This document shows, in pieces, positions 767 to 45,410 of a stretch of DNA of 63,863 nucleotides. Position 1 is the first letter of the stretch. Each line of letters starts with the position of its first letter. Under the pieces are notes generated by a model, which saw nothing but the letters and a program-made list of their open reading frames with translations, did no database searches and had not been told where the DNA came from. The stretch covers positions 408,084,138-408,148,000 of the forward strand of contig CM097883.1 of assembly GCA_044892505.1 (NCBI GenBank), given 5' to 3'. Made by a program: the position numbers and the translations under genes. This DNA is from Schmidtea nova (lineage: Eukaryota).

Positions 767-2199
767 TATTAATTGTAATGAGCTTCCTATAAAAAAGATT
801 TATTTGCATGTAATAAATGAATGGACTTAAAATTATAAATTACCTTTAACTTTAATTGAATTTATATTTGAATTTTTTTGCTAAAATGAAATTTTTTGCA
901 TCACGTTAAATCAAATCAAATCGCGTAAAAACAGAATTAGGTGCACAGTATATAAATCGGTTTATTGAGCACAACGAGAAAGAGTAGTTAATACGGTCAT
1001 TAGGACGAACGATCTCGATATATAATGAGGGAATACTGAATCTTGTAAATGAAGACAGCTCAAAAAAGCACGAAATTAAATTTCATAAAGAAACTGATGA
1101 TAAAAATCCGATAAATTATACAATTATTGTGATCGAAATGAATTTATTGAACTATCACTATTTTAAATCACATCACATTATCTGTGATTTTATTGCTATT
1201 TGCTCACCATTTTGGTTTTTATGATAATGATACCGAACAGTGTTTGTCTGAACACCAAAAGTTAGTAAAGATTCTACACCAGCAGTAATTAAGGGTCACA
1301 AAGACATTTATTACAGACAGTTAGCGAGTAATAACTATTTATTATTATTTTTAAATAATATTTAAAGCTATTTTATTATTTTTTAATTTAATTACATATT
1401 TAATTTAATGTTTTAAGTTAAATATCTATTTATTTTATAAATATATTTTTTAGATATTTATGAAATACTGAAAAAGGTAAGTCATTATAATTTTTATTCG
1501 GCAATTAAATTACATGTGCTTATTTACATGTCCCCGAAAATTTCCTCTTTGAATAAAGACTTTAGGAAGAACCTTTTTACATGACCATAATAATTTTTCA
1601 AATGAAAATATGATCCTTTTTCTTATCCTTCCCCCAGAAACCTTTCGACTGATCCCATTCGAATTTTTAATTAATGGTATTCCATCCTTTTGATGAGTAT
1701 TCGCTTGTTTTGGTTCGTGGACACATGGTTATTGCTGGTAAAGAGAATGTATGTCGCACGCACCCTCAGCATAAAAAACTCTTCTTTACTCGCACACCCA
1801 TGGCAACTCCCCCTGACCGCCATGTTGGAACTGTGTACGACGGTGACAGATAAGAGAACAGGTGAGCTCCTTTGCAAGAACTACTCTTCACTTACCCCTC
1901 CACTTCGGGTTCCTGCTGACGTTAGAAAGACTTACGCTCTGTCATTAATCATAAGGTTTCCTTTTAACACTCGTGTAGTCAATTTTATAAATAGGACTTT
2001 ACTAACTTAGCTGACTTTCTTAGTAAATCCTAAAAAGGCAATCGCTATCCGAACCTAGAATACCTTCACTGGCTTATAATAATACTTTATTTCGCCAAAC
2101 TTTCACTTTCTATTACCAAGGTGGGCTTAACTAGATTAAATTACTTTACTGTTATTGATTATGAAGAAAAAAACTGAAAAATCCAATACATGTATTTCA

Positions 2200-2647
2200 T
2201 TCAAACATAATAAAATCACCGGAAATCGGAATAATTTCTGACAGCAAGTCCAGCTCGGATAGCTCGTCTAGGTAGTCAACTTGCTGTTGCAGCTGTTGCG
2301 CAAACAATTTCTTCTGGCGCCTCCGTTTGGAGCCAATTCGCTTCCGCTGGACGGCTTCGAGACTGGTTCCTTCGGCGTGTCTGGATTGGTAATAAGTGTT
2401 ATTTCCAGGCCTTTAATGTCGGTACCAACCGAGCACGCTGGTCTCTGCTCTCCTGCCCAATGTTGGTAGGTGAGGTGCCTGATTTGCGCTTTCAACTCTG
2501 TTTCAATGAAAGATTTTATTTCGGAATGGAGACATTTCCGTAACTTTGATTTCAGCTTTGATTTTCTTTGCCACTCGTTGGGCGCGTTCAGTGCGAGTGA
2601 TTTGGTCCTTCATGCGTGTAGGAGCAAACCAGCTCTCCCCCTTCATT
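2200..2647 (-). pseudogene. Decayed GC-richer ORF, possibly a distant member of the orphan ORF family (copy D)
   Basis: Frameshifted reading ...KPSSGS../SKRRRQKKLFAQQLQQQ... loosely parallels KPNKGVRARRRRRQEARLLG in the 5787-6341 ORF. No conserved downstream element was found. Confidence 0.3.
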
Positions 2648-3539
2648 GAATATTCACCGGAAAAATCATTGCCAACAATATCTAACGATGTGTAGGGATT
2701 CCCTGAGGCGGTATTTAATCATAGATAGAAACTCCGGCTGATAATACACCATGCATACTCTAGCTCACTGGATTTCCAAGAAATGCCCTAAAACTTTGAA
2801 TTGAACTCCCCAGTGTTCTCTTTACTAATAATTTACTAAATAAAAAAAACTTTCTACGGGGTTTAGAAAGGGGCTATATGGCGGCAAGCATTTTATACCG
2901 TTTCACCCCGTTTCATTACTTATATTAGTAAATTTTTGTCATGTTCTCTATCTATGAAATTTGAGTTAAAAATTAAAAAATCAAATTTATTTTACGTTTT
3001 TCGACGTTTCCCTTCTACAGATCCTGCTGGTTGAGGCATAATAACTTCATTTCCTGCATTTCTAAAAATATTTTTTATTTTTTTAATATAATTGTAAATT
3101 TCCATTTCTCTTGATCTTTACAAATAAATGGCATGGTTGATTCTGGCGAAGCTTCTGAAATGTCTTCGAAAATCATTTATTTTTTAATTTTAAAATCCCT
3201 TAATTAAAGATTGTTACTTAATTTATGTCCACGTGTTTGTATTTTTATTATAGGGTTTTTCTGTGTTGTATAAGTGTGTTTTTGACCTAATTTATTTTTC
3301 TTTTCTTTAGTAAAGACCCGTAATTTATGCCCTTTGGTGTATTAGAATGAACGGAAAATCTGTTAAATTTTGAATTGGGGTAAACATAATTTTATAAATC
3401 GAAATATTTTAATAAATAAACGTTGCGGAAATTTAAAAAAATTATACTATATAGTAGAAACATGTAGACTCGTTGCCTCTCCATCTGCATGGGTTCTGCA
3501 GGGGTTCCCGAAACTAAGGGGCCGATAAATATGAAGTTT

Positions 3540-3735
3540 TGGGTTGTTGATCGTCAATATGACCTTGACGTTGCTATGTCTCACATCAACAACTCATCAT
3601 ACAAAACATTAGCTAACCCGTCACAATGTAACGTTGATAATGCAACAAATGGGAGGGTATTCGCAATCAGTGAGCGTTGATAATTCGAAACTATGATTGA
3701 CCTAATATCTCCTGGGTCCAAGGGCTACCGATTTT
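3540..3735 (-). repeat. Conserved ~200-nt stem-loop-rich element, copy A (downstream of orphan ORF copy A)
   Basis: Aligns by eye with 5345-5550 (direct) and 45214-45410 (inverted). Stem GTTGTTGAT (3543-3551) / ATCAACAAC (3585-3593) encloses a CGTCAA/TTGACG hairpin. Confidence 0.9.
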
Positions 3736-4006
3736 GTCCGATTTTGTCCCTAAATGTCTCAACATTAACCCTACAAGCTGCTGTTGAAGCTCTAGACGAC
3801 GACTACAAGAAGGAAAAATCATGTCACCGTAATTTAATTCACGATCTATAACGAGGTATTAACAGACAGTTTAACTGCAAATATCGGAGCAAAAAGGTCT
3901 TTGTCGCATGTTAAAGTTGAATTAACTCGTTAAAATGTAATACATAAAAATTACTTAGAAATACAAATTACAATATATATATATATATATACAAATGTTA
4001 ATATAG

Positions 4007-4548
4007 TTAATCAGTGATGGAAAGTTCGATTGTTTCGACAGATACCTTGCGGAGCTGCCCCAGGAGTCGAGCCTCCTGACGTCGCTTCCGACGGGCAGGA
4101 ACTCCTTTACTGGGATGCCATTTCTTTGGACGATCGGTAGAAGGCGCGCCATCCGTTTGTCGAGATGGTACCACCCCATTTGTCCGAACGGGGAACAATT
4201 CCATTGTAAGGAACTCTGCTTTCGGTAGAACCGCTGCAACGATGCCGGCGTCGATCTTCAGCTGTGTAACTTCGGCATCCCGCTGCCTCAATGGCGTCTT
4301 CACGGCCTGCAGTTGGAGCGCGTCCTCAGCCGGATCTGTTTCCGCATCTTCTCGGTGCCTTCCACGTTCGCCCAGGTGGATTCCACCTTACGGCACCGAT
4401 AACGGAATTTCTCCATTTATTCCATTGTCCCTCGGAGCTCGGCGTACATTAGCTTCTTCTCTTCTTCCATCTCGAACACGCGGCCTGTCAAATGACGCAT
4501 GCTTCGATGAACTCCCGTCAACTGCCCCAGTACCTGGTCAATTTTCAT
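4007..4548 (-). pseudogene. Orphan coiled-coil/Arg-rich ORF family, copy A (one stop, one frameshift)
   Basis: Reads MKIDQVLGQLTGVHRSMRHLTGRVFEMEEEKKLMYAELRGTME*MEKFRYRCRKVESTWANVEGTEKMRKQIR / AEDALQLQAVKTPLRQRDAEVTQLKIDAGIVAAVLPK...WHPSKGVPARRKRRQEARLLGQ. It is colinear with 5787-6341. Confidence 0.85.
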
Positions 4549-5344
4549 TTACAATCTTAAATATATACATGTTCATTTTAATGATAATTAAATCCTAAAA
4601 CCCTCAAACATTCATATAAGTAAATACAAATCATTCACTCGAATTTACCACTCAATTCGGCAATCAATCATTCCGCTAAAAAACATATTTTCGGGGGTAT
4701 TCGACAACCATTAACTTCATCCAAATGATTAATGTTTTCTTTTTTTCGAAATTATTGTTCTTATTAATTAGAAACTCAAGCTAACTATAATTATCCAACC
4801 CTATTGTCTATTTTGCTATATTAATAGGTTTTAATGATTTTCTAGGAATTTTATATTTTAATTTTTTGAAATTTTGCAGCGTCCCTAGCAACAGGTAACG
4901 ATCCAAAATTTTCTCTAAATTCAGTCTGATTTATTAATATTTTGTCATGAATTTGACGTGCTTTATTGTTATTTTTGGATATAGAATTATATTTCAATTT
5001 GGGAAATAAAATTTCATTTGTCCTGTCGTGGGAATTACCTACGTTCCCTCGATGCAAGAATTTACTATATAAATGAGAATGTAAATTTAAAGAACTCTGA
5101 TATATTATGGGAATTTAAATCCTATTATACGTTTATCGATTTCTGAATCCAAATATAGAAAAAGAATTTCCCCTTATTCTAACTGCATCTATCAGTAAGT
5201 TAATTTAATTTTTCCCTTTTAAGTGTTTCATTTATGGTTTAGACCCAGCTCCAACTCCAGCTGTCTTTCGAATTTCTATTAAACTCAGCTATATATAAAT
5301 TGTCATATATTTTATCATTACTATCTAATTTTTTTATCACTGGT

Positions 5345-5550
5345 GGGTTGTTGATCGTCAATATGACCTTGACGTTACTATGGCTCGCATCAACAACTCA
5401 ACACATAAAACATTGAAATAACCATCTTGTTACCCGTCACTATGTAACGTTGGTACTGTAACAAGTGGGTGGGTATTCGCAATCAGTGAGCGTCGTCAAT
5501 ACGAAACTATGATTGACCGAATATCTCCTGGGTCCAAGGGCTACCGATAG
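5345..5550 (-). repeat. Conserved ~200-nt stem-loop-rich element, copy B
   Basis: Stem 5347-5355 / 5389-5397 with inner hairpin 5356-5361 / 5369-5374. A second stem CTTGTTAC/GTAACAAG encloses CGTTAC-ATA-GTGACG (read on the minus strand). Confidence 0.9.
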
Positions 5551-5786
5551 AAGGTTTCTCGCCCCTTTTTGTCCCTCCTATGCATTATTTACTTCAGAAA
5601 ACTTCATATACTTCATTTACTATTGAACCTCAGTTGCTTTTAATCAATTTATTCTATACATTGCTTTATTTCATTCAATCATTCAACCCAAAAAAAATAA
5701 AAACAAGAGAACACTTTAATTAAAAAAAACAACACAAACTACAAAAAACAAATAAATACACGATGGGATATTAGTTGTCTATTAAA

Positions 5787-6341
5787 TCACAAAGCAGTAA
5801 TGTCTATTATGTCTACAGATTCTTTGCGGACTCGTCCCAGCAGTCTCGCTTCCTGCCGACGTCTTCGGCGAGCCCTCACCCCTTTATTGGGCTTCTGCCT
5901 GGCCGTCTTGGCGGGAGCAGGAGGTGCCAATATCTGTTCCTCGACCCTCACTGGGAACAACTCTTGAGACAGACAGGGTGGTTTTGGCTGGACGGCGGCA
6001 ATGATACCACTGTCCAATCTTAGCCGTTCATTTTGTGTTTCCAAGTCCCTGATTGTGACTCGGCACGCCCGCAATTTCATTGCGTCGTCCGCAGCCTGCT
6101 GCAACAACATCTGGATTTGCTTGTGGAGTTTGTCGACGGTCTCTTTGTTCGACCACGTCGACTCCATCTCCCGGCATCGCGCTCTGAACTTCTCCATCCG
6201 AGACGTCATGATCTGTAATGCATCCGTATTTGAAGTTTTCGCCCTCTCCATCTCGGCGAAACACTGGTCTACCCGGCGATTATGGCGGGCATTTTCCACA
6301 ATCAGCTTGTGTATTTCTTCGAATTTCTGTTCAATATTCAT
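5787..6341 (-). CDS. Orphan 184-aa coiled-coil protein with Arg-rich C-terminal segment (family copy B, intact)
   Basis: Uninterrupted, GC-richer ORF. Amino-acid motifs MEKFR..C..MESTW.N.E, SGIIAAV.PK, ELFP.R and RARRRRRQEARLLG are shared with two diverged paralogues in the window. No known family recognised. Confidence 0.65.
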   Translation of the reverse strand: MNIEQKFEEIHKLIVENARHNRRVDQCFAEMERAKTSNTDALQIMTSRMEKFRARCREMESTWSNKETVDKLHKQIQMLLQQAADDAMKLRACRVTIRDLETQNERLRLDSGIIAAVQPKPPCLSQELFPVRVEEQILAPPAPAKTARQKPNKGVRARRRRRQEARLLGRVRKESVDIIDITAL

Positions 6342-9300
6342 CTAAAAATTATACAAGAATAACCCATTCCCGTCGTCACTCAACATTCAATTTTAAATAT
6401 TCATTTTAAATCAATAAAAATAAAATCATTTTGATCTAAGAACATTTATCAATTTTTTATAACCAACACAAAATTATCTCAATTCACGCATTCATTAATG
6501 TTTACCCTCAAATATACCATCGCCAACTCAATTCGGGGATCAATTCTTCCTATAAAAGACATATATTCGGGGACTTCCAATCGCTGTGAAAATTATCAAA
6601 TTGACTATTATATTCAAAGTTGTATAAATTTTTGTGTTTTTCATATTTAAAATTTGGAGAAACTTGATTTATATATTAATCCTATTGTCTATCTTGCTTT
6701 ATAAGTTTAATTATATTTTTATTAAGATTTTATGAGTTTAACATTTGAATTCTCGCCGAGGCATTGGCAACGGTATCAATATAAACTGCCTAAATATCAA
6801 GTAAATTTTATTTTATTAATATCTTTTAATTCCGAATATTTCCCTTATTTTCTAATTCTAAATTTAATTTTATTTTAGGAAGTTCTACTCAAATCAGGAT
6901 ATCCCAAAAAACGACGCCGTTCCCCCGCAAAAAGGAAAAACTATATAAACGCCAAGTAAAAATTCCAGGATTTTAATTGGTTAGTTATATTATATCATTT
7001 TCAATTTCACTATTACAAATATTGATTTCAGCGATGCTAATTTTAGAAGGAGATTCCTCCCAATTTTGATTTTTCAATTTAGTAAGTTATATTCAAATTT
7101 TGTGTTTGCAATTATCATTTTCACCTTTTAGTGTCTCAAATCTCCTGAGGTGGATGGTTGCTTCTACCCAGAACCGTAGCAAGCGGTAACATAAGTCGCT
7201 GCTCCTCCATGACAGAAGAGAAAAGAAGGAAAAAGAAATTTTCAATTTTTAACGATTACCGAATTAAAGTAATTTTAATATTGATTCATTTTATTTATTG
7301 ACATAATCCTGATCTTTCAGCCCAACTTATTATGAAAATTTTCCCATATCTGCTGGATTTCAATTGGAGATTTTCCATGATGTTTCTCGTTTGGATTTTA
7401 ATCTACCCTTGCTGATGGATTTTTATGCTTTTCTTCGCATCCCTGACAAATTCCAGCTCAATTTCATTCACTCAATACGGAATTTTTATGCCTCTGGATT
7501 TCATGATGCCTTTTATCTGACTACATTCAGGTGCTAAAAAATGTGAGTAAATTTTCGGTGTACAATTTTTCTTTCGAAATAAAAAATTGGTCTTTATTTA
7601 TTTTGATTTTTAAGATTCCATAACTTTTTTGAAGGAAAACAAAAAATTTTTTTTGGTCTTTAAGTAATGATTTTTTAACGCGTCTAAAGATGTTTTCAAC
7701 TGAAATTTAAGCACTATTGTTCGAACTTGTCCAATCCCTTATGATAATTTTTGAAAATGATTTGTTACTAATGTATCGATCCTGTTTCTTACGATTTATT
7801 TTAGGGATGGTAAATTATTATATAGAAAATTCTGTGGGTTTGTTAGAAAACTCGTTCCCCAATAAAAGGACAAAAAAAAGGTTAAAGTATTACAGTCTAC
7901 AAACAGTGTTATAGGATCTTACTGAAGGAATTTTTTGATTTCCTATGTAGATGGGTCGATTTTCCGAATGTTGATGGTTAGTTGATATAATTTGTTCGGG
8001 AGTGGATGTAGCGTTCCTAAGTTTGCATGTATGTATATGTTATTGTAAGTCTGAAATACATATCGTATTGTTATAATTTTTTGTGATTTGCGTGTGTTTG
8101 TATGTTGGGAATGATACGGTGGTAATATGCTATAAACAATGGGTGGGATTATATGAATATTTGTGGGGATCATCTGGATGTATGTCGCTAGTGGATATTG
8201 TGAGATGAAATCATGTCGTGTATGTTGGTGAGTGAATGTATTGTTTATGTATTGTCCAATATAGCAGATCCTATTGATCGAAATGTGGTAGTGTGTGTGT
8301 GTGTTGGTAACTGAATGTATTTTGTATTGTATTGAGTATAGGTGTTACTATTGAATGAAATGGATGTAAGTTTTTGCAAATAGGAATACAATATGATTTT
8401 GAGATATCGTGGGGGTTTTTAATAAAAATAATATATAATATACGTAAAATATTTTCCAAATTAAAATAATACTAATAATTTTATAATGATTTTTATAACT
8501 TTTTTAAATTTATAATTTTATGAAAATAGTAAGATTCCTAAATTTTTATACTTTATATTTTGAATTCAAATTTTTATATTTTAATATTAATCGTAAAATT
8601 TTCTGTAAAATCTCGAATTTGGAATTTTTTAAGATGATAAAATTTCTAGTATAATAATAATATTCTCGATTTATAAATTTTTTGGGTTTCATTATAAGTT
8701 CTTAGGGATTTTATAAAATAACAAAATCTTTTATATTTTTTATTATAAAAGTTTTTCAATGTAACAAAAAGTAAATTTTTATTTTTTGATCAAAACGAAA
8801 TCCACATAACAATAAAATTTTTATCCATAAATTTAGAAATCCAAATAAGCATTTAATCAAAAAAAAACTTTTATATGCTAAATAAAAAAAATAAAAATGA
8901 AATAAGTTATAAATTTTTCAACGAATATTTTTAACATCAAGTAAAGTAAATTTCGGTTTCGTCCGAACATGAATTTCCCAATCAAAGTGCGCGCGAATTT
9001 TTCGGGACACTTCACTTAGGAACTTCAGGCTCCCGAAAACAAGATTCACCAGAGAAAAATTATTTATATAATGAATGAGTTTTAATTCAGATCAATCAAT
9101 ACTTGTCCTAAATTCATTTCATTTCATGATCATTATATCCGTTTTGAGCATTATTTCATATGATTCTTTTCCAACATTAACTTCCATTTACTTCGGATAA
9201 GACGACAGTTGTTGTGAGAGTGAAGGCGACGACGAGTAAAATGATCTTGTACAATTATTTTTCCTAATGGAAAAGACATTGCTGGAGAGATTCGTCTTTA

Positions 9301-11710
9301 CGTTTACATGTGGTATTAATTTAAATGATAAATATGTCAGAAATTATAGATTCAAATAAACTACATTTATTATAAATTAAATATCATTAATATAACAACT
9401 TGCTTTTGGCCAAGCCACTGTTCCCCAGTTGGGATGAAGTGATCATGGATGGTTAGGCTATTCACCTGGACTCGGAAATATGGGCTGATCAATTTACGTT
9501 TCGAACCAGCGATCCGCTCAGGCTACTTCCACCCGATCGGCACAAGGCCAGACACAGGCTTCAGGGGGTACGGAAGAAAAAAATTTTTTTATTTATTTAT
9601 TTAATAGTTTGGACTTGAATTACTAATATTTTTTCTTTTTAATCATGAGAATTTGTAAAAAAAAAAATTTAACAAAATAAAAACAAATTCGTTAGCAAGT
9701 TATCCTATATTATTAGGATACAATTTAAGACATAAAATAAAATGAATATAATAAAATGAATTAAATAATAAATAAATAAAAATGGTGTCGATATGGGATG
9801 TCCAAAGGGCATGACTTTTTGGACTTCCCATGCCGATAACGCATATATAATGAGATAAAAAATAAAATAAAGCAAAAACCTTACGCTTAGTGTGGCTCCT
9901 GATCTTCTCAAAAAAATTTTTAATTCAAAATTCTATAGTAAAATTCTGGAACGAAACAAAACAACAAAAAAATATTCACTAATTCTGATTCTTGCCATTT
10001 TGATGGCGGTATATATACCATCGATTTTGCGTTACCTTCAGTAGTGTAATAAAACAAATTGTTCTAGAATTTTCCGTTTAATTTTCCTAAATTAATTCTA
10101 ATGATTTTCCGAAAATTAAATCCATATTTTTGTGTAATAATTTTTTATAAAACACAAATAATTTATTTTAATCCAAAATTTTTATTTTTGAATCGAAATT
10201 TGTTCGATTTAAATTAATTTACGATATTTCGATCAATATTAATTCTTTTTGTTGTTAATGTGAAATATTTTGATAAAATCACAGTTTTCGGCTAAAATTT
10301 TGTCAATTTTTCTCTGCATGAAGGTTTTATAACACAATTCCGTTTTTTATGGGTATTTTCAATGGGTTTTTCGCCTATTCCAACTTTTAAACGTTCTTCT
10401 TTTGATGGCATTTGATTTTTCTCGAGGTTTCAATGTAAGGGCTTTCAGACTCACAGCTAGCGCGTTCTCTACTGGTTGATGTGTTTTGAGTTCACTTCAC
10501 CTTTTGTTGTTTTTCACTTAATCGTTTGGATTTCTAATGGATGTTTGGGTTAAAACTGAATCTTGCGCGCTTTCTACCTATGGGGTTATCGCTTTATTAA
10601 AACAGTTTGTGGTTTTTGCCCAACAATACCTTTCTTCAAATATGACATTCTAAGGATGAAAAGAGTCAAAATTATCACACTGCATATAAAATATATCGAA
10701 AGGCAATTCATTAAACGAGCATTGCGAAGCTACAATTGCATGATGTATCAAATTTGATGCAATATTAAAAATAGCAATTTCAGTATCAAAAAACAATAAT
10801 TTTAAATTTATTTATATTTTAATTTAAAAATAACTTATTTGGCTGTTTCTTAAAATTTTTTTCTTCGTCAAAATCGCTTCAAAAATGTCTAAAACTCGAA
10901 TCTCAAATTGCTGAAATTCACCGACTGACAGTTCGTCTTCGAGTGACAAGTGAGGTTAATATTTTGGCGGTAACAGCGCCTCTAGGGGTTAAATTATGAA
11001 TTATATATATGCGTTATGAATGTATCTAATAAGTAAAACCATGAAATGATAGCTTATACTTTTTAAAGTACGTTTTTACATACAATTTCAGTGTTGAGGT
11101 CTCAAATATGTGTATTTGAAATCTTAACTGGGGGTGGCGATTCTTATATAAATAACGAAGGCAATAAGAGGTTTGCTTGAAAAATTTATTAAATAATAAT
11201 ATTTTTACCAATAAAAGTTGCACACAGATAAACGTTTTACAATTCAACACTTTAAATTCAATTTCAAAGTTCTGTTTGATTTTATATATTTTTGACCAAC
11301 TGGTCTATTTTAAATGCTCTACAGGATTTGTACATGAGAAAGCGAAATTTATTAGCAAAATTTTACACTGAATTTTATGGCAATCTGACTAAATTGTCAT
11401 TGCCTTATATACTAAAATTTATCATGCATTAAAATTTGATATTTATTTTTATGTACATTTTCAATTTAAAATTTGATATTTACAACTACTGAAAATTCCG
11501 CAATGGGAAAATTTGACATTTACAAACTGAACCAATTATTGAAAATTGAAATTATAATTATCGAAAATTCCCAAATATGATATTTATATAAAATACATTG
11601 TAAATTCCTAATAATCAATAAAATCAAGCATGCTCAGAAATAAAAATTAATAAAATAATTAAAGTCAAGCATGCTCAAAAGTAAATAATGAAATAGTCAT
11701 GTTAATCAGT

Positions 11711-13717: not shown

Positions 13718-14285
13718 TTATTGTAAAGTAAATGAAAACAAGGTTAAGAGATCAAAACACAGAATGAGTTCGACTATTCGTATTCGCACACCAATAAAGA
13801 AAATAATCATGGGCACAATACTCCTTCGACTCGGTAGGACTGAGAGGGAATCCGTAACTTCATCTTGTCTTGTCGGCTGGAACACCAACTTGCCCATTCC
13901 AATGAGGTCAGACATCGGGAGTCACTCTTTAAAAGCACATTATTGCATCCCGGTACCTTTCTTGGAGGGTCCACGAAGTATTTTGGATAGGTGGATGGCT
14001 AGACAAAGTCCACATCAATGGGTCATTCGGCACTGCCATGCTAGATGATTTTGTCCGGACTATCCCGATGGAGAGTAAATTTCGGTTCCAGTCCCTCCCC
14101 AGGAACATGTTCCGATGCTCTTCAAATATCTCCTGGGCTGGATCTGCTGGAAATTTCTTCAATGGCATTGCTATAAATAAATAATTGTCGTAGCTGGGTT
14201 CGGCTAATTCATCGTTATACTTCGATGGTTGACGAATCTTTCCACCTCTCGTTCTATCGAAAATTTGAGTATCGAAGTTGAACAT
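13718..14285 (-). pseudogene. Unidentified ~190-codon decayed ORF
   Basis: ORF 13929-14285 joins 13718-13915 through a 1-nt frameshift and one stop near 13925. It is a GC-richer island. No family recognised. Confidence 0.4.
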
Positions 14286-14449
14286 ATTGATGCTTATCTA
14301 GAGGTAAATCAAATTTTTATATGCAAACAAAACGGTATGTCCTTTCAGCTTTAATTCACGCCATTAAGAATTATTTAAATTTAGGACAATGAAAAAATCT
14401 TTAATCATTTTTTAATCCCATTTAAGCTTGTTATTAAAGATTTCAACAT

Positions 14450-14750: not shown

Positions 14751-15647
14751 TTTAATTTGATTTTGATCAAAATAAAATTTTACTTTTTTGATCATCTCCA
14801 TCCTCATTAAACCCAAAAAACCCTACTTTCGTCAACAAATTGCAGAATGTCATTCCATAGCTCTAACAGATAATTATGTTATAAATATCATTGGTTAATA
14901 TTCTGTATAATGATAATCAAACGATAATCAACTTGCATTTCTAATAGATTTTGTATTTTGGTAATTTACGAATTCATAATACATACACATACATTTATAT
15001 CCATGTATATTTATCTTTAAATATTTTTAGATTCATATTTTGATTGCAGTCAGTAATCACATTTCTGTTCATTGAATATGAATCCATTACAGGTTTTTCC
15101 TAAATGTTTAATCATTATTTCAAATTGTTTTATCATTTCAAATATTTAATCAATTTTACGAAATGTTTAATCATTAATCTTTTAATTATTTATAATTATT
15201 AATGAAGTCGTACCTGTAAAAAATAAGGATTTTGTTTGTTATAAAAATTGAAATATTAACAATAAAAAACACACACAAATAATTTATTAACACAGTTCCC
15301 TATCAATAGCTCTTCCAAGAAACTCTTGGATGTGTGAATAGAGACTTAAACAATGTCCAACAGTTATTTGGTGTTTATTTGCAATACAAACTAATAAGTC
15401 TTGTTTTCAATTAACATTTGAAGATTTTATCATTCCTTGTCGAATTGTCTAGGTTATTAGATCTTCTTACATTATTTGTGTCAGCTTGGTCTTCAGAGAT
15501 TTCGATGTTACATTCGTATTTTGGTTTTAAGTAGCTGGGTTCATATACTGCAATGATTTTTTCATTTTTAAATAATTATTTGTAATTTGTAATTATAATT
15601 TGCATAAATATATCTAATAATATAATTTTTATAAATAAATAACATGT

Positions 15648-15650
<3 letters not shown>

Positions 15651-15702
<52 letters not shown>
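15651..15702. repeat. (TA)n microsatellite attached to AT-rich module
   Basis: Perfect TA run. Confidence 0.97.
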
Positions 15703-15705
<3 letters not shown>

Positions 15706-16463
15706 GTAGATTTTCGAAGAGCCAAACCTGCGTATATGGCCATTGGGATCAATTGGTTCGGAACAGTCCCAACCACTTTGACTTTCATTGATCTTGGAGA
15801 TAGACATGTTACTTCTACGGCATGCATCCAGAAATGTAGATGCCGAGTAAGGAGATCTGTTGGATATGCAGAGGTCATGTCATGTATATAGTTGGAGTAG
15901 GAATCTTTTACTCCGATTTCTTCATCACCTTTAACAATGCGAATTGCGTCGTCGGCTACTCTTGTGTCCATAATGTATCCTAATACCTCTGTAGGTAATC
16001 GTCATGTTGCCTTTCCTATGTCAGAACGGCCTGTTATTATTGTGCAAGCACGTTGTCGGGACGGCACAGTTGAGATTCTAGCGGCAGCGTAAATGTTATT
16101 GGGAAATTTAGATAGAAACACAATCAACACTGCTATCAGTTTAGTATAGTTTGAGGGATTAGACAAACTACTTCTGAGTTTGGCAAATTGTATAAATTCA
16201 GAAATATCCATACTGAAGGGTGGTGACTTGAATACTACTAACACTGCGTCCGCTACTTTCACAATATACTGCTGATCGCCACTTTGGCGGACGAGCATCA
16301 CCCTATACATTGTTATTAAACCCTAAAAAAGACCCCACCTGGCCTTCTTACTATCCTCTACTTTCCCTATTGAGCCTCCAATCACTGATTTATAATATTC
16401 AATATCGAGTAGAGACAAAGGATTTATCTTATCCTCTTTTTCCGATAAGTATACCGTGGGGCC

Positions 16464-20715: not shown

Positions 20716-21378
20716 CAAATTTTAAACTAAAATTATAATTAGACGAAAAAATAAAATCTACATGCACGCAAATAAAAAAAAGGGGGTCCCCGGTGACCGC
20801 AAGGACACCGACCATAATAATGCCGCGCTAACAATGACAATCACGATAATAACAATAATAATCATAAAAATATCAACTAGGTATTATCAGTCGTAACTAG
20901 GAAAACGGGCCTAATTATTTTAAGAGTTTGTATAAGAGATCGTTTAATTCATCCCGTTATTTCGGTATCTCATGCCGCTAAAATATATATTTTTTAAAAT
21001 TAATTGTAAGAATACCAGTATGTCTTTGGCGAAAATATTAAGATACAGCATGTAGAGCCTCAAGGGATTACAATTACTGTATATTGCCTGTTATTTTACG
21101 TTTTCATATTATAAATTTCCTCATCGATGTATTCTACATCAGATTTTGATCACCCAAAATAATTAAAATAATAATTAAAATAATATTAGAAAAACTATAC
21201 TGATAATTTTTATTCTGATAAAAATTTAATTTTAAATATATTTCAAAAATTGCCCTCATACATCAATCTATACAATAAACAAAAACAGCTTTAACACTTT
21301 AATTACTCCAAAGCTTACCATCATTCTTTAAAGAGTTCGCTCTTCTAGATTTTACCACGCTCTGCTACCAATGGTTCT

Positions 21379-21640
21379 CCCAACGATTTCCTTTCTTTTT
21401 GGAGGCGTCCTTTCTCCATAGCTTTTAGCTTCCAAATTAATTCAATTTCCAAAATTCGAAAAGACGCTAAAAAACCAATCACGCTAAGCAATAATTACCA
21501 ATTAAATTTTTAAAAAACATATCCGCCAATATTAATTTAATTAACTCCGCTAAACAAAATCAAAACGCCCAAAATTAATTCACACAGCAAAAAAATTAAA
21601 TTCAAAATATTTTTAAAATTAATTAAATAATAATTAAAAT
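21379..21640 (-). repeat. Inverted, internally deleted copy of the repeat carrying the PSMA6 fragment
   Basis: The reverse complement of 21379-21435 matches 22898-22954 at 53/57 nt. About 21470-21520 matches about 22195-22235 (TTGCT.AGCGTGATT block). Confidence 0.8.
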
Positions 21641-21708
21641 AATTAATGGGGTGCTTGATCGCTGTGAGAGATTGTGGGGCGAGCCTGGAAGCCGTTAGAC
21701 GGTCTTAT

Positions 21709-21865
21709 TACGAACTCTAATAAATTTATGTTCTTCTCAATTGTAAATGGCCAACACTTTCTAAACACCATCTAGATCCATATGTTCCATTAAATGATGA
21801 AAGAACCACTACGAGTTATGCTAATAGCTGATACACATTTATTAGGCATACAAAAAGGCCACTAA
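21709..21865 (+). pseudogene. MPPE1: Metallophosphoesterase 1 (PGAP5) N-terminal gene fragment
   Basis: Reads YEL**IYVLLNCKWPTL... then, after a frameshift, KEPLRVMLIADTHLLGIQKGH*. This matches MPPE1 (EFLIYYLAIFQCNWP...LKAMFLADTHLLGE..GHW). Confidence 0.8.
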
Positions 21866-22414
21866 AGCAGTTGCAAATAAATTGCAAATAATCCGCCAAT
21901 GCCCATCATCCACACATTATTAAACACCTAGCGGTTTATACCCAGGTGAGAACTGGATTATTATGTCTGTGTGCGCGATGGTGATGGTGTAATGATTTTC
22001 TTGGCGTGCGCACACAGACGCAAGGATCTTCGAATCGCGATTAAAAGAATAATTGGGCAGTGAAACTCAATCGATGAGATTTATGGATTGAAATTTGATT
22101 TGTTAAAATGATTTTTTTTGGAAATTATTAAAAACATTTCAGATAATGGATATTTGTTTATCTGAATTAATTGATTTATTTAGGGCAGAATTAATTTTTA
22201 ATTTGTTAATTGCTGAGCGTGATTTGTATTGGAGTTTTTATGAATTATTTGGCGAACTGATGGCATTGTAGATTGATTTTGTTTATACGGATTTATTTTG
22301 GAGTGAATTTATGAATTAGAATGGAACTTTTGATTTAGCTTCGAATTTGGAATTGTAATTTATAGAATTAAATAGAATCTTCGACACTTGGAATTGTTAT
22401 TTTGAATTTTAAAT

Positions 22415-22925
22415 ATGAATAGTGAAATGTTTTTGGGCGCATTATTTCAGGTCGAATATGCATTTAAAGCGATTGCGTTAGATGGATTACTTTCTGTTGG
22501 TTTTCGAGGTAATGATTGTGGCGTAGTTGCTACACAAAGAAAAGTCCCAGATAAAATGAACGAAAAGAGTTCAGCTACAAGATTATTTAACATAACTGAA
22601 AGTACCGGTTGCGTTAGGACCGGAATGATTCCTGATTGCGAATCGCAAGTATGCCGTGCACAAATGGAAGCTGCACGATGTGAATGTAACTTTGATTTCG
22701 AAATGTCCTGTGACAGGATTTGTCGATGTATTGCCGATATTAATCAATTGTACACTCAATCAGCTGCAATGAGGCCATTAGGCTGTTCAATGATTCGATT
22801 TTCTTACGATAAGGAGATGGAGAAGCCACTTTTATTCAAAACCGATCCAAGTGGATTTGTAGCTGGTCGTCGAGCTGTTGCGGGCGGTGGAAAACAGTTG
22901 GAAGCTAAAAGCTTTTGAGAAAGGA
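22415..22925 (+). pseudogene. PSMA6: 20S proteasome subunit alpha type-6 (alpha1) fragment, intronless, truncated at both ends
   Basis: GALFQVEYAFKAI..G..SV..RG.DC.VV.TQ.KVPDK....RLF.ITE..GCV.TGM..D..SQV.RA...IADI.Q.YTQ.A.MRPLGC.MI...DPSG...KQLEAKSF matches PSMA6. It lacks the N-terminal FSPEG region and the last ~60 aa, and carries many Cys substitutions. Confidence 0.92.
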
Positions 22926-22991
22926 CGCCTCCTAAAAGAAAGGAAATCGGTGGGCGAATGATTCTTGTGAAATGATTCTTTTGCTTTTAAA

Positions 22992-23198
22992 TCAAATAGT
23001 AGTCTTTTTTTCAATAGACATCAAGGCTAACCCGTGAAGACGTTCTTGTGACATTGTATTACGAGAAAAACTTTTAATTCGTTTCAATGCTGAAAAACTT
23101 CGTTCTAGTGGAACTGTAGTTGATAGCATTGACAAAATTAAGTCTGCATGCTTACTCGTTTCGGAAAATACCTGGCACATAGTATATTGCAATGTCAC
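22992..23198 (-). mobile_element. hAT transposase C-terminal dimerisation-domain fragment
   Basis: STTVPLERSFSALKRIKSFSRNTMSQERLHGLALMSIEK is the canonical hAT/ZMYM-type dimerisation motif. Confidence 0.88.
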
Positions 23199-23608
23199 AA
23201 AGCATAAATACAGTGGTTTAGAGTGATGGTTAAATTGTTTTACATATTATTGTTTTATTACAATGCAGATTCTATTTACAATGATAAAAATTAATTAGAA
23301 TTTATTATAAGAAAATCATATCCTTATTATCTTCGTTAATTCCGTTAAAAACTAAAACTAAAAATATAATTAATATTTCTTTATTTAATTAACAAGTTTG
23401 TTATACTTATATTCTAAATCATTAATTAAATTTGAAAAGGGTTAAACTTTCAAAAATGCAAATTAGATTTTTAACAATTTCTAATTATCTAATTACTTAA
23501 AACTTCTCTTAAATTTAGACGTCGAATATTATGAAATCAGAACAAATATTGACAAAAAAAATACTTCACTAAAATCATATATAACAATCCCACAAATGAC
23601 ACAATTAA

Positions 23609-23838: not shown

Positions 23839-24598
23839 TTAAATATGCAGGATAAGTTATATAAAAAATTATTAAATTATATTTGACCCAATGAATAAAA
23901 TTAGGATTTTAGTGGTTTAATTAAATATTGATATAATTCTACATTATTTTTCTTACAAAACATATTCATTTTCCCTTTATTTTCTATTTTTTGCAGCTCA
24001 ACATTTTGGGTATGTACTAAGCTAATCGGGTCAACGAAATTATATTTGTACTAGACAGTTTTATGGAAATATCCTTACTTGTTTAGTGATGAATAATTTT
24101 TATGCTCATCAGTAGTAATGATTGATCCAACAATTATACCATCTTTTATTACTGTAATTACTGTCATGGCATTATTATCCAGTGCCGCTCTTATAATGAT
24201 TTGTAAAAAAACAAATGAATCGCTTTTAACGTGTAGACTAAGACCTCGATGAGACGTACATTTATAATTTAGCATTGTCTTATCCAACTGATTAGTTTTG
24301 GTCACAACTATTTTTTATCCATATTTTAAAATATGCATTTCCTTTTTAATATATTCATTATACATACTTTAATCCGATATTTCTTTTTCATTCATTTTGA
24401 TAATAATTTCGGTTCTTCTGAAATTAAAAAATTAAAAACTCAACTATAGTTTTTAGTAAAAATACTTGCATATAAGCATGATTTTGTACTTGTTCCGGAA
24501 TTGGTGATATGAGGTTTATTTTTGTTTATTTGCATTTGATGCATGAAGGATCCGGTAAAATATTGGGATAACCATTCAAATATTTAATAACAATTGAT

Positions 24599-24880
24599 GT
24601 GATCTATCCTGCATATGGAAATATTTATCACAGCCAAACAATAACATATTATAATTGTCCTGATGCTGCAGAATTGAGAAAACTATCATATGAAAGACAT
24701 GCTGGTATTTGGTTCTGTTACTTATTTACTATCCCAATCAATTTACTAGCAATAAAAAGTGAAAGTGCGAATCAAATTGAAAGTGAAATCGAGGATAATA
24801 ATGAATATAAAATTGAATATATGATAAATAAAATTAAATATCTCAATAAAACACTTGACGAATTGCCGTTGCCGATTTGA
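24599..24880 (+). other. Unidentified 93-codon ORF/exon-like segment (second copy 32636-32917)
   Basis: Open frame with non-random-looking sequence (IYPAYGNIYH..YYNCPDAAELRKLSYERHAGIWFCYLF). No family recognised, and no ATG start. Confidence 0.25.
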
Positions 24881-26626
24881 TTAAATATGACTGCAGTTTG
24901 TATTACCGATTAACTCCTAGCAGTAATATGTCGCCTGTTTTCATTTGTATTAAATTGTATCTTTTCAAATTAACCAGTCTATTTAAATTATTAATAATAC
25001 GAAAAACATTTTTTACATTTAATGCACACGTACTTTTTGATTTTTTCAATTTTTACTTTTTTACCAAATTATTGGTTAGGAAATAAATAATTCTCCAATA
25101 AAAATTATCAAGATTAAAAGAAAATTAGTAAATGTAAAATTTGCTGAAGTTTCTTAGTTAATCAATGAAAGTCTATCACGATTTTTAGACATGAAAGAAT
25201 AAATAAAGTTTAAATAAAATAATTTCCTCTCCAATGGCTTCAGCATGTTATAATTAATTCCAAATCTAACAATTAATTTCATAGCCAGGTGTTATTTCGT
25301 AGATTTTCGAGCATTGCAAACAAATTTACTAAAGAAAAAATATATAGGATTATTTTATCAACGATATACAATCAAAAGAATCTGGGATCAGTAACCATAT
25401 TCATTATGTAATCAAATGAATTTCATGTATTACTGACAACCAATTATTATTTTTAATCAATAATAAAACTAAATTTTGTGTAAATTTTACGTTTGATAAA
25501 TTAAAGCACCATCACATAAATGAAATTAAAATCAAAAATTTCAACAACACAAACCAAAAAATTTGGAATCTAATAAAATGCACCTTATATTCTATAATGT
25601 AACTAATAATCTAAATGTATAATTAGAAATTCATATTATATTAATAATATATAAAATAAAATTCAAAATGCATAAATAAATTTTATACTTATAACTAATA
25701 ATCAAAATAAACCTTAACTAATGATCATGATTATTCAAATTCCAAATCGACAATATTCGATCATATAACAGAATTGAGCTGATAAATAGAAATGGTTAGA
25801 GTTCATTACATAACTAACATATCAAAAGTAGTAACATGTGACCCCTTAACACTATAGGAAAATGCCGTCCGTTCGAAGAACCCAACACTTTTTAATTTTT
25901 TTGTCAACCGTTGATTGATTTAAAGGATCGATATTCCGTTCGTTTTGAAATTTTCTAATCTACAATCTGATACTAGAACTTTGTACAAAATGATTTTATT
26001 AATATTTTTTATTATTTGTCATCAAGCTCCTTGGCGTATTTCCAACATCAATATCTCAGCGCATTTAAAATAATCTTAAGTTGACAACAAACTACAAATA
26101 AAACATCAACTAAGTTTTAACAAACAACTGTTTTACACATTTTCAAAAAGTGCCTCATTAGTTAAGGTGTGTACAAATAAAACTAAAGACATACTTACAA
26201 ATATTTACTTTGCAAATTCAAAATTTGTTGACTGCGAGAAATTACTATATTCCGATTTGAGGTCAGAAATTTGAGGTTAAAATTTTATTTTCTGTTAATC
26301 TGATATATTGATTAGTATTAATAATACTAAAAAAATTCAAATGACTTTTCTATTTACCGACAAAAACACAAATGGCTAGGAGAGAAGTCTTGTATTTCAA
26401 AATGAATAATTGAAAATGTATTCTTACAAATTAATGAAACGGAAATGTATTGTTTTGTTTTGTCATGTTGAAATAGTGTTAAACGTATATTTACTCTAAT
26501 CAATTTTTGAAGGCCATATCAATGGAATTGAAAAAGAATTTTAAATTGGATCGAATAAAATCGAGAATTATTTATTAATCTTTATTTATAAATCTTTTTT
26601 TTTTATAAATTATTTATTTACAAAAA

Positions 26627-26695
26627 GTTCGCAGAACCCCTGCTATCAGTCCACGGAACCCCAGGGTTTCGCGGAACAAACTTTGGGAAACGCTG
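26627..26695 (-). mobile_element. hAT (Charlie-like) element terminus (second copy 34664-34732)
   Basis: Reverse complement CAGCGTTTCCCAAAGTTTGTTCCGCGAAACCCTGGGGTTCCGTGG is a typical hAT end. Partner end not found. Confidence 0.6.
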
Positions 26696-29230: not shown

Positions 29231-29719
29231 CATTTAATAAAATTTAATTATGCGATGAAATCCCAGCGAGCAGGCTCCGTCGAAATAAGGTCGCTGTTGG
29301 CAAGCTGTAAACTGAATATAAAAAAACCAAAGACGCAAAATTTCTAGATTGTGCAAGGAATCATTTGTCTTATTGATTGAAATAAAATCAACTCAATTTA
29401 CAAATGTAAGAAAGCTAAATTAATAACTAATAGACCAAACTCACCGATTCAGTGATCACTTATCGCAGCATATAATTGTTACGGTGTTCGCCATATTCAC
29501 TACAACAAATAAACTAAACCCATTGAGCGCAAATTGATTTTTACCACCATGAAAATAATTCTAAAATCAATTATGATCATAAAAAGATACATTTAATAAA
29601 AACAATTAATAAATACAATCCTGAAAACAAAAGTCCTATTGATTACTATATTCTATACAAAATAAACATTATTACGTAATGAACAAGATATTTATTGAAT
29701 CTACAAAAATAAACTCATT

Positions 29720-32549: not shown

Positions 32550-32550
32550 T

Positions 32551-40800: not shown

Positions 40801-42462
40801 TAAATTTCAAAGTTTAAGTTTGATTAACCCCATAAATATAATTTTTAAATTTTCAAAATCCACTTTACACTAAAACTCCGAAATTCACAACTATTTAAAT
40901 CCAAACTTCAAAATCGATTAATTTGATTTAACCAAACAAACATTTTTTAAAAGCCATCAAATTTTTTTTAAACAAATCCATCAAAAAATTTTTAAAAACC
41001 CAAACATTTTTTATTTACAAATTGAAAGGTCCCCCTAATCCAAATCCTATAAATCTTTTAATTTAATTTTAATTTTAATATAGTCGCAGCTAGGAGCGAC
41101 CATTTTCCTCCTTGACATCTCTGTGTCAACATTTCGATTCCTCCAAAAACTCACCTTAGTATCGCACCAGAAAATCACTTTTCTTGCCATCTTTAAACCT
41201 AATTATTATAATTAATTAAAAAAATTTCACTGTTGCACTTTTGTGCCTTAATGATATTAAAAATTTTATCTTGTGACTCTTATGTGCCTTAAAAGCTTCG
41301 TTTTCTTTACTTATGGCACTTCAGTGCCTCATGATTTGAAGTTTCCAAGTGAAGTGTCTCGAAAAAGTTATGTACACTTTACTTGGAGATCGAAGTTAAT
41401 TTTTGCAAAAACCAATTAATGAAAATAATGTGATGTGAAAACTCTTAAATTTAAATTATAATATATAATAATTCTAAATTTAAAAATCTTATTATTATAT
41501 AAATTTTATAAAAAATAAATTTTAAAAGTAGTTTTTTGTTTTGTTTTTTTATGTTCCGGAACATCTTCTTTTTTATTTTAAACTCTTTTACCTATCGAAT
41601 TAATTCTAATATACAAGCTGGCCAGACTCATATACCAGAATCGTTTCAATACTTGTGCTGTGCATTATTAACACTTCTCGCTCATGAAGGCGATCTCAGC
41701 CGTGTTTTAAGCACATTACCGAAAGACCGAAACAACTTCGAAAGAGGTCAGAAAGAAATTCACCGAAATTAGGGAATTAAAAGAATTCTAATTCAGGTAG
41801 AAAGATCATAAATTTTCATAATCAATATTTATTTTTCAAATAATTTCTAATATTATTTAGTATATGTTATTATGCCGTAAAATATATCTACTAAAATAAA
41901 AAAAATAATTATAAATCCCTATTTGAAAATCAAAACAACCATATTACTCATCATCTTCATCTAATGCCACACAAAAGTTCATTCATCTATAATTTCATAT
42001 AAATTATCATTTCACTCATTAGCATTCCATATGCAGCATGCCACATCCAGAAAATCCATGCAAAAAATCATTCATTTACATTCATCGTTGAGCTACCCAT
42101 TACTTCCAATATCATCTCCTACATTCAATCATCACAATGAAAAATTTGTTATTAACATATAATAATACGCGAATTACCAACTTCCAGTTACAACATCCTA
42201 CCACGTAAATTGATTGAATCACAACTTACCACATCCTAGTATTTGCAAACGATAACTTCTTTTGGTTTCAATCCTTCCGTTACAGCTCAGTACATCCTAA
42301 AGAATTAAATTGCTTATTTGCAATTCACAACATCTCATAATAAATACTTGCATCTCACAACATCTCTTTTCACAATTAATCAAATCAGTTCAGTCAACAA
42401 TCAACATCCACATTTAATACTACACACGAGAGTCTATATATCCATATATCCATGCAAATTAC

Positions 42463-42982
42463 GGTACTTCTATACTTTCCCCCCACCTTTGATTTTTGGT
42501 ATGCGTGTAAATGTTTTGGCATGTTCACTTAGATATATTTAAGCGTTTGAAAATATGGTATGCATTATTTTTGCTTCAAGAATGAATTTCATGTCGTTGA
42601 TTCAAACCTATGGAGAAAAAGAGAAGGCAATCAAATTCTTTCAAGAAAGAAACATTCTACACTCTGACCGTGATTGCGCAAATGGCCATCCAATGAAATT
42701 ATATATTAATTCAAAGGAAGAGCGATGGAGATGCAATGTGAAGGCTTATCGTTTGCAGAAACAATTGAAGGCAGATACATGGCTGCATGGAACTCATTTG
42801 GCATATGACACGATTATTTATTTCATTTATTGCTGGAGTAAGGAGTATACGACAATTGCATTTTGTCAAAGTGAGGGTACTTCTATACTTTTAGAAGCAT
42901 GCCAAAATATTATTAAGAAAATGTTGCCAAAACATTTACACGCATGCCAAAAATCAAAGGTGGAGGGAAGTATAGAAGTACC
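42463..42982 (+). mobile_element. Non-autonomous Merlin DNA transposon (520 bp) with transposase N-terminus
   Basis: About 58-bp TIRs beginning GGTACTTCTATACTT. 8-bp TSD CAAATTAC (42455-62) / CACATTAC (42983-90). ORF 42555 encodes MNFMSLIQTYG..EKAIKFFQERNILH..R.C.NGH.M...RWRC...TWL.G..L...IYCWS, a Merlin transposase N-terminus. Confidence 0.88.
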
Positions 42983-44703: not shown

Positions 44704-45243
44704 ATGGAAGCTAAAATCGACGAATTGTTGAAGAAAGCTGTAGAAAATGCGCGGTGCAACTGTCGTATCGACGTCCGACTCGCCGATATGGAAGCGGAAC
44801 GAAATGTAAATGCGGACGCCCTACGCGAGATGACGATTCTAATGGAGAAGTTCCGGTCCCTCTGTCTTACCATGGAAGCGACATGGACCAACAAAGAGGG
44901 TGTAGAAAAGCTGAAGAAGCAGATTTAGTTTCTTCAAAAACAAGCAGTGGAAGACGCCACACAATTGCGGGCGAACAAAATGCTCGCGAGGAACAAGAAG
45001 TCCGAAATAGCCAGGATGCAGATGGAAAGCGGCATCATCGCCGCCGTGCTACCCAAGGACAACCGACCCGCTGTGGAACTATTTCCGGCCAGAGTTGAGG
45101 ACGAGGCGTCGGCCACACAACATCCCGAGCATCAACAACGCTGGGAACCAAGTAGAGGCGTTCGAGCACGTCTAAAACGCAGAAAGGAAGCACGTGTGTT
45201 AGGACAGGTTGATGAACCCATAGTGATGTTCGGTCAATCATAG
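44704..45243 (+). pseudogene. Orphan coiled-coil/Arg-rich ORF family, copy C (one in-frame TAG)
   Basis: ORFs 44704-44928 and 44947-45243 are in one frame: MEKFRSLCLTMEATWTNKEGVEKLKKQI*FLQKQAVEDA...MESGIIAAVLPK...ELFPAR...WEPSRGVRARLKRRKEARVLGQ. Confidence 0.88.
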
Positions 45244-45410
45244 TTTCGAATTTTTCGACACTCACTGTTTGCAGCCATCCACCTATTTGTTGCATGCCAA
45301 CGTTACATTGTGACTGACAACTAGATGATTTTAGATAATGTTTTATGTGTTGAGTTGTTGATAGAAGCCACAGCACGTCAAGGTCATATTGACGATCGAC
45401 AACCTACCAC
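45214..45410 (+). repeat. Conserved ~200-nt stem-loop-rich element, copy C
   Basis: Inverted homologue of 5345-5550. Stem GTTGTTGAT (45354-62) / ATCGACAAC (45395-403) has one T.G wobble. Confidence 0.88.

Follow-up and report, generated by a model that had tools for sequence, protein, structure and literature searches.

The 63,863-nt stretch of Schmidtea nova DNA analysed here (the window) contains three diverged copies of a small gene together with conserved flanking DNA. Copy A (4007..4548) and copy B (5787..6341) are adjacent on the minus strand, and copy C (44704..45243) lies on the plus strand. Copy B is intact and encodes a protein of 184 aa. The other two are broken: A has an in-frame stop (4419) and changes frame near 4330, and C has an in-frame stop at 44926. 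The preliminary description of the region had reported three diverged copies in this orientation, with only B intact, and its coordinates hold: amino-acid identity between the copies is about 45-49%, synonymous sites are saturated, and the amino-acid motifs it had listed are present in the alignment. When the B protein was searched against the window with tblastn, it matched C at 44698-45210 on the plus strand (49% identity, E 5e-46) and A at 4019-4473 on the minus strand in two frames (43-47%, E 9e-28). A six-frame profile search detected no fourth copy in the window.

The gene is coding and under purifying selection, as had been suspected. Across the copies pS is 0.76-0.82 (saturated) versus a pN of 0.32-0.35. 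Among the variants listed for the family of B (40 of 133), 7 of the 11 located in the ORF are synonymous against an expected 22-30% (p 0.004-0.023), and none of the 11 indels listed for this family falls inside the ORF.

According to the structural model, the B protein (pI 10.0) consists of two long heptad helices (residues 3-63 and 66-117) followed by a low-confidence linker and an Arg-rich helix with 8 Arg in residues 156-170. This concentration of 8 Arg in 15 residues corresponds to 7-8 Arg/Lys in A and C, and is weaker (4 Arg in 15) in P0001, the one unnamed homologue (33%, E 3e-6; contigs of 549-638 nt) found among 1.84 billion representatives. The generally known leucine-rich export-signal (NES-like) pattern has three loose matches in the protein, the pattern being unspecific in a coiled coil. 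A profile search recovered P0001 alone and nothing among longer proteins, which is weak evidence, and none of 152 candidates was a homologue of B. No Pfam match at cut-off, PDB sequence match, fold match at E 0.001 or better, viral-structure match or related locus in metagenome, viral or prokaryote contigs was found, and the same searches gave no named relative of the protein family, no confident match to a known TE or host family and no sequence homology to Rev, Rex, Rec or CERV. The suggestion that the protein is capsid/Gag-like is therefore unsupported, as the model of three helices and a linker also lacks a capsid fold and a zinc knuckle (CCHC). Atlas matches were generic coiled coils. No RNA holder of the gene was listed, which has no bearing on expression.

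Downstream of each gene lies a conserved end block, a candidate LTR 3' end, which was found at 3540..3770 (minus) in A, 5341..5576 (minus, about 236 nt) in B and 45205..45409 (plus) in C, the block of A being 3 nt shorter than those of B and C. A downstream element of ~200 nt had been described for all three copies, and it is indeed common to them, but the block of C adjoins the ORF, contains its stop codon and lacks the ORF-proximal part. Between copies the end blocks are 82-89% identical at the nucleotide level, against 59-62% for the ORFs. All three end in CA (at 45409 in C), without a poly(A) or microsatellite tail, and no terminal inverted repeat was found. None of the three ends is followed by a TGG primer site, as would be expected of solo or 3' LTRs. 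Three or four hairpins are predicted in the block of B, and the last 15 nt of the end are predicted to pair at 13 of 15 positions with a site 48-62 nt inside; folding of the end block as a whole is not significant and favours neither strand (z -1.6 and -1.3). The boundary at 5341 is sharp: 305, 294, 222 and 388 public contigs diverge there into unrelated flanks (agreement 0.4). These hundreds of dispersed junctions, together with high-depth ORF-variant contigs and several multi-copy subfamilies, bear out the mobility proposed for the unit.

A self-contained cassette of ~1.8 kb is unsupported, because the collinearity of B and C extends for 3.55-3.7 kb or more, counted from their end. The homologous upstream blocks reported for the copies stand for A and B, with a score of 76 against a shuffle maximum of 43, but not for A-C and B-C, which score 38 and 41 against maxima of 43-44 and share a motif of ~55 nt only. 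The upstream DNA of A (4549..5260, minus) is homologous to 6342-7147 of B; the homology reaches about A 5260 and B 7147 (equalled in 0 of 200 shuffles), and the upstream DNA of A is cut off by the end of B at 5341. About 200 nt upstream of the ATG of B there is a motif block (6526..6572, minus) that recurs in A (4650-4696) and weakly in C (44504-44560). Farther upstream, a C/A-rich tract of B (8095..8400, minus) is collinear with 42043-42131 of C (65%, E 0.002; weak), only one of 11 tiles of the upstream DNA of C beat all shuffles against B, and a 520-bp insert with 59-bp inverted ends (42463..42982, strand not assigned) is nested in C. No Pumilio-site trio or row of micro-genes was found upstream of B or C.

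The most distant homology is a block, predicted to form an RNA hairpin, in which 50 nt of B and C are 78% identical (E 1e-6); it scores 45, and the best of 20 shuffles reached 31. In B (8950..9034, core 8978-9027, minus) the folding z is -3.9 in the sense of the gene and 0.0 on the other strand, and in C (41330..41419, plus) it is -3.6 and -1.9, respectively. All 19 pairs are kept in both copies, five of them by one-sided changes that all involve G-U, in a structure that is derived from these same two sequences and holds no two-sided change. No such hairpin was found for A. Immediately before the ATG of B, a T-rich tract and TAG (6342..6360, minus) resemble a 3' splice acceptor, and a YAG directly precedes the ATG in two of the three copies (TAG in B, CAG in C, none in A) versus 47 of 2276 ATGs in the window. 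Beyond the hairpin, a GC-rich block of high depth (9390..9575, minus) has a donor-like site at 9465 and may be the 5' part of an LTR or a separate repeat.

Sequencing depth was followed across the unit in four runs of one study, with library type not given and with summed depth not equal to copy number. In the end block it is very high, 3-5e4 times that of unique DNA. Single ORF-variant contigs have depths of 127-293 in run X1 and 468 in run X4, where unique DNA has about 20 and 48. Summed depth declines across the 2 kb nearest the end and rises again at the far block. In X4, bins 8777-9027 (8.6e5) and 9279-9500 (6.1e5) are comparable in magnitude to the end block (1.4e6), and the gene-bearing middle is 20-70-fold lower. 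In X1 the end block exceeds the hairpin bin (4.3e4) 18-fold.

Several familiar identities were considered for the unit, and most were rejected. A TRIM or a short LTR of about 230 nt does not agree with the missing PBS and second LTR, the selected ORF and the single end block per copy. Non-LTR derivatives that keep ORF1 alone (HAL1-like) have a poly(A) or repeat tail, a TSD and ORF1 homology, and here tail, TSD and ORF1 domain are all missing. Penelope-like elements and retrozymes were dismissed as no hammerhead was found and Rfam was blank both at gathering thresholds over the whole window and at E up to 5-10 in 3400-7300 and 8800-9900. For Helitrons and Helentrons, which have TC...CTRR termini or paired subterminal inverted repeats, the comparison covers the one defined end, which is neither TC nor CTRR, and the distal parts, where the end word has no inverted partner; such an element is less firmly set aside. 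An internal complementary region of the DIRS type was discarded, its predicted partner word being absent from the distal parts. A hammerhead, a circular-DNA-virus origin and a tRNA-like end were also dropped after inspection by hand against the known motifs. As for other boundaries, a start of transcription immediately past a TATA-like word (6941-6949) was rejected since depth drops upstream of the word, and just 2-3-fold, and a sharp end at 7153 since depth continues past it.

It seems fairly probable that the units are LTR sequence. The fuller reading, which we favour by a narrow balance, is that they are the 3' parts of multi-kilobase LTRs from three diverged, Burro-like lineages of giant Ty3/gypsy elements, with a gene whose transcript is predicted to be spliced and whose product is possibly Rev-like. 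That no RT, transposase or TIR is seen would be better explained if the unit belongs to the LTR of some larger element. The lineages probably keep the shared end because reverse transcription and integration need it, and swap the middle or let it diverge. At the three copies an LTR TG start, PBS, PPT and second LTR were looked for and not found; no TSD is convincing, the one 6-bp candidate, at 13696, being at chance level; and no gag or pol (gag-PR-RT-RH-IN) was seen beside the copies in the window. The copies may be truncated or nested. Copy A resembles the truncated end of an LTR, with a younger B directly against it, and an identical 200-nt contig spans the A-B junction in run X3.

Burro elements of planarians are >30 kb, have LTRs and accessory ORFs and reach thousands of copies (PMC6431247). 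The units here resemble Burro/GYPSM1 in being AT-rich, in their probably planarian host, in an apparently very high copy number, in a multi-kilobase repeat that ends in CA and in having a putative accessory ORF. They differ in that section 7 of PMC6431247 describes accessory ORFs but mentions none within the LTR, and in that gag-pol, PBS and an LTR pair are not linked to them, so that their membership is putative. Another flatworm element, the TRIM ta-TRIM, is described as having a pair of ~198-bp LTRs with a PBS and a PPT, and none of its ORFs exceeds 120 codons (PMC4558846). It shares a conserved unit of about 200 bp ending in CA, whereas each copy here has a single end block and no PBS, with a selected gene of 184 codons, and the unit is longer than 3.5 kb. 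Plant LTR retrotransposons also carry conserved additional ORFs whose role is unknown and for which a function resembling that of retroviral accessory proteins has been proposed, and the 3' ones are reported between pol and the 3' LTR and often antisense (PMC7264820), in contrast to the sense gene here, located 0.2-1 kb from the end of the element.

Other origins of the unit have to be weighed against this LTR reading. An independent non-autonomous element outside any LTR, at least 3.7 kb long and of an undescribed type, such as a one-gene retroelement or rolling-circle cassette whose helper recognises the folded end, is rather unlikely. It would agree with the missing LTR start, PBS and TSD in three copies, with the head-to-tail position of A and B, with the 13/15 pairing, which is as in self-priming ends, and with the fall in depth over the first 2 kb. 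However, poly(A) or microsatellite tail, hammerhead, other Rfam families and TIR were not found, the end word has no second copy near the distal part, the rise in depth at the far block is unlike 5' truncation, and a joint of the upstream DNA of B back to the end block is absent among the 15 of 196 that were listed. A host multigene family beside unrelated repeats, or a segmental duplication, is largely excluded and has very little probability left. While intron-like signals and purifying selection are host-gene traits too, gene and end block always occur together in the window (three of three each way), the ORF is much less conserved than the non-coding ends, two of the three copies are broken, and the hundreds of dispersed junctions at a sharp end, with several multi-copy subfamilies, speak against it. 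It is equally improbable that the unit is an endogenised virus segment or satellite with a small capsid-like protein: the basic tail and the rhabdovirus-like relics elsewhere in the window could suggest this, but viral contigs and viral structures gave no match, a single weak PHROG match (E 0.001) appeared in one of six rows, and the capsid fold is missing while dispersed copy number is high.

Within the LTR reading, the role of the protein can be seen in more than one way. It is possible, and we propose it tentatively, that an intron of the element RNA holds the far hairpin and ends at the YAG preceding the ATG, and that the accessory protein would be made from the spliced mRNA. The protein would oligomerise through its coiled coil, its Arg-rich helix would bind structured element RNA, and binding would favour export or stability of the unspliced form. 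With the same LTR anatomy, the protein might instead be an activator like Tat or Tas, serve in packaging or as a chaperone, or suppress host silencing, a minority possibility that we take seriously. A coiled coil with a basic tail suits many nucleic-acid-binding roles, homology to Rev, Rex, Rec or CERV is missing, and the accessory ORFs of LTR retrotransposons are mostly of unknown role in the account of PMC7264820. In contrast, the conserved hairpin is strand-biased, and its position within the predicted intron, upstream of the acceptor, is that from which a response element would work.

The proposed RNA-export regulator has parallels. Like Rev, Rex, Rec and Rem, it would be a small protein with an Arg-rich motif, from a predicted spliced mRNA, with a predicted structured RNA in the same transcript (PMC2661877). 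It differs in having no sequence similarity to them and about 115 residues of coiled coil, and its binding and export are predicted. In MMTV the response element spans the env-3' LTR junction (PMC2661877), whereas here gene and hairpin would both sit inside the LTR. A proven parallel on an LTR retrotransposon is CERV of Cer1 in C. elegans, a spliced regulator needed to export unspliced RNA (PMC10309623). It is comparable to the predicted spliced regulator on a presumed LTR retrotransposon here, but CERV, as portrayed in that source, is a large protein built of three structured domains plus a cysteine loop, and no similarity to the 184-aa helical protein was found.

More doubtful still is that a Rev/RRE-like switch has evolved wholly inside a gypsy-type LTR, in which a spliced, Arg-rich coiled-coil protein of a new family would bind a conserved hairpin in an intron of that same LTR; many lineages with saturated synonymous sites would exchange the gene between common ends, and gene-bearing LTRs may act in trans on other copies. 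Hairpin and gene alike are of a size that suits direct binding and reporter assays. If the proposal is true, a retrotransposon outside the retroviruses would have independently reached the style of RNA control of complex retroviruses, and, with protein and RNA parts both inside the LTR, solo LTRs would disperse a regulatory gene through the genome.

Copy B (5787-6341, minus strand) is an intact ORF of 184 codons. In the window, tblastn with its product retrieved copy C (44704-45243, plus strand) at 49% (E 5e-46) and copy A (4007-4548, minus strand) in two frames at 43-47% (E 9e-28), and a profile search over the window's six frames gave no fourth copy. Copies A and C are broken, A by a stop codon (4419) together with a shift of frame near 4330 and C by a stop codon at 44926, in agreement with the preliminary description of three diverged copies with B intact and the others disabled. 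Purifying selection on the gene, proposed there from amino-acid conservation, was evident in the pairwise codon counts: pN was 0.32-0.35 and pS 0.76-0.82, so synonymous sites are saturated, and pN/pS was 0.39-0.47 (upper bootstrap bounds 0.49-0.58), not near 1. Among the 40 variants listed of 133, 11 fall in the B-family ORF, seven of these being synonymous (p 0.004-0.023), and none of the 11 indels listed lies within the ORF (p 0.026, a generous value because AT-rich flanks are more prone to indels). The downstream element said to be common to all copies is indeed so, at 82-89% nucleotide identity versus 59-62% for the ORFs. Homologous upstream blocks had been claimed for each copy and are significant only for the pair A-B, C having a short motif in common.

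Four public runs contain the window's sequence; they come from a single study with at most three samples and unrecorded library type, and one may itself be the assembly's source. They were taken as DNA because intergenic DNA is evenly covered. At 5341, the sharp boundary of the end block (the element downstream of the gene) in B, hundreds of contigs depart from the element into unrelated flanks (305, 294, 222 and 388 in the four runs; agreement 0.4, median 255 letters). Over the end block the depths add up to 0.5-1.4 million, versus 4,000-28,000 over the B ORF, sums that are not copy numbers. Contig depth over unique DNA was 13-48, and single ORF-variant contigs reached 127-293 in run X1 and 468 in run X4, that is, 6-15 times unique DNA, which indicates several subfamilies with near-identical copies. 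The suggestion that the unit behaves as mobile was thus well founded: this is a mobile, multi-copy family. Some public contigs join 5482 back to 5341, so at other sites the end block also forms short head-to-tail repeats; it is further joined to 8127 and 9270. The end block is predicted to fold into three or four hairpins, not above shuffles and with no strand preference, and matched no Rfam family.

The unit, formerly put at about 1.8 kb, is longer. A 50-nt stretch of B (8978-9027) is 78% identical to C 41337-41386, both having the same orientation (E 1e-6; score 45, 20 shuffles reaching at most 31), and this second block is collinear in the two copies, 3.69 kb (B) and 3.55 kb (C) from the element end after discounting a 520-bp insert in C. 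A weakly matching C/A-rich tract lies 2.84 kb (B) and 2.85 kb (C) from the end. In the gene's sense the far block has a predicted hairpin fold (z -3.9 in B and -3.6 in C; 0.0 and -1.9 on the opposite strand). All 19 pairs are retained in both copies, two sequences only, five of them via one-sided changes involving G-U and none via two-sided changes. Copy A has no far hairpin in the window. B and C cannot be aligned in the stretch from hairpin to gene (one of 11 tiles significant). Depth recovers to the order of the end block in X4, at 8777-9027 and 9279-9500, and in X1 it remains 5-18-fold lower there. The layout is a conserved far part, a lineage-specific middle with the gene and a conserved end. 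A high-depth GC-rich block at 9390-9575, with a B-box-like word, a donor-like site and no Rfam match, may be the LTR start or a separate repeat. A splice-acceptor-like YAG stands immediately 5' of the ATG in B and C, not in A, against 47 of 2276 window ATGs (excess p 0.001, for a pattern not chosen blind), and candidate donor-like sites occur upstream of the hairpin at 9465 and 9049 in B and 40764 in C.

The modelled B protein (6-row alignment, mean pLDDT 78, pTM 0.31) has helices at 3-63, 66-117 and 153-182, with a low-confidence linker before the last, and hydrophobic residues at 12 of 17 and 11 of 14 heptad positions. Its pI is 10.0 and residues 156-170 include eight Arg. The capsid/Gag-like identity suggested earlier found no backing, the model having neither capsid fold nor zinc knuckle. 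The lone homologue, P0001, is unnamed and from short contigs (E 3e-6, 33% over 121 residues); beyond it, protein, profile, Pfam, PDB-sequence and fold searches gave none.

The surrounding animal DNA is AT-rich (22-39% GC) and abundant in transposon relics. Remnants of a Pif1 helicase (56436-56972), a hAT transposase (22992-23246) and a Tc5/pogo transposase (286-606) are present. Three inverted-end elements lie at 45441-46671, 42463-42982 and 21375-22958, the last enclosing a proteasome-alpha-like frame. An 8037-bp tandem duplication (24514-40586, 99.98% identity), either very recent or an assembly artefact, truncates the DNA upstream of copy C. A rhabdovirus nucleocapsid-like relic (15576-16322, minus; PF00945, two frames, E 6e-7 and 1e-3) has (TA)n tracts on either side. 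Pfam matched none of the GC-rich orphan frames at 13929-14297 (minus, 122 aa), 2268-2609 (minus; diverged relatives in public contigs, 31-51 differences) and 1675-2010 (plus). An intronless 756-aa ORF (48229-50499, plus) has a hydrophobic start, a membrane-like stretch close to its end, one weak, sub-cut-off Ig-like Pfam match and no match in the searched protein collection. Intronless TRAF-type RING/zinc-finger and MATH frames lie at 62464-63102 and 57942-58349 (both minus); MATH-TRAF is a cargo described for Burro elements (PMC6431247).

Most likely, the copies belong to a giant retrotransposon of gypsy type and represent 3' portions of its long LTRs, a reading we favour with some reserve. 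The rival explanations are a free-standing one-gene element, a host gene family and a viral segment. All three end blocks terminate in CA without a tail, and a primer site directly after it is absent in all three. Alignment of flanks to define ends and TSDs had been proposed; around the copies in the window we found no LTR start, PPT or convincing TSD. A ta-TRIM identity was rejected, as the copies fail on LTR pair, PBS and ORF as outlined for that group (PMC4558846). Burro/GYPSM1 elements exceed 30 kb and have thousands of copies; they carry accessory ORFs, and section 7 of PMC6431247 names no gene within the LTR, whereas the gene here is read as LTR-borne. Literature searches gave no LTR-borne arginine-rich gene in planarian elements, and the original Burro paper, its supplements or Repbase may describe one.

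Within the LTR reading, a tentative and rather doubtful mechanism is that splicing of element RNA into the acceptor next to the ATG would yield the protein's message, unspliced RNA retaining the predicted hairpin. The protein may oligomerize via its coiled coil, its Arg-rich helix could bind structured element RNA, and the bound protein would help unspliced RNA to be exported or to remain stable. An arginine-rich motif is also a feature of Rev, Rex, Rec and Rem, to which the protein has no sequence similarity; Rem is made from spliced RNA, with a response element straddling the env-LTR junction (PMC2661877). An LTR retrotransposon with a proven spliced regulator of RNA export is Cer1, whose CERV is a large protein, different from the B product (PMC10309623). 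The rival here is another accessory role for the protein in the same LTR. Under either role, the unnamed selected gene in this mobile repeat is probably an accessory gene inside a giant retrotransposon's LTR.
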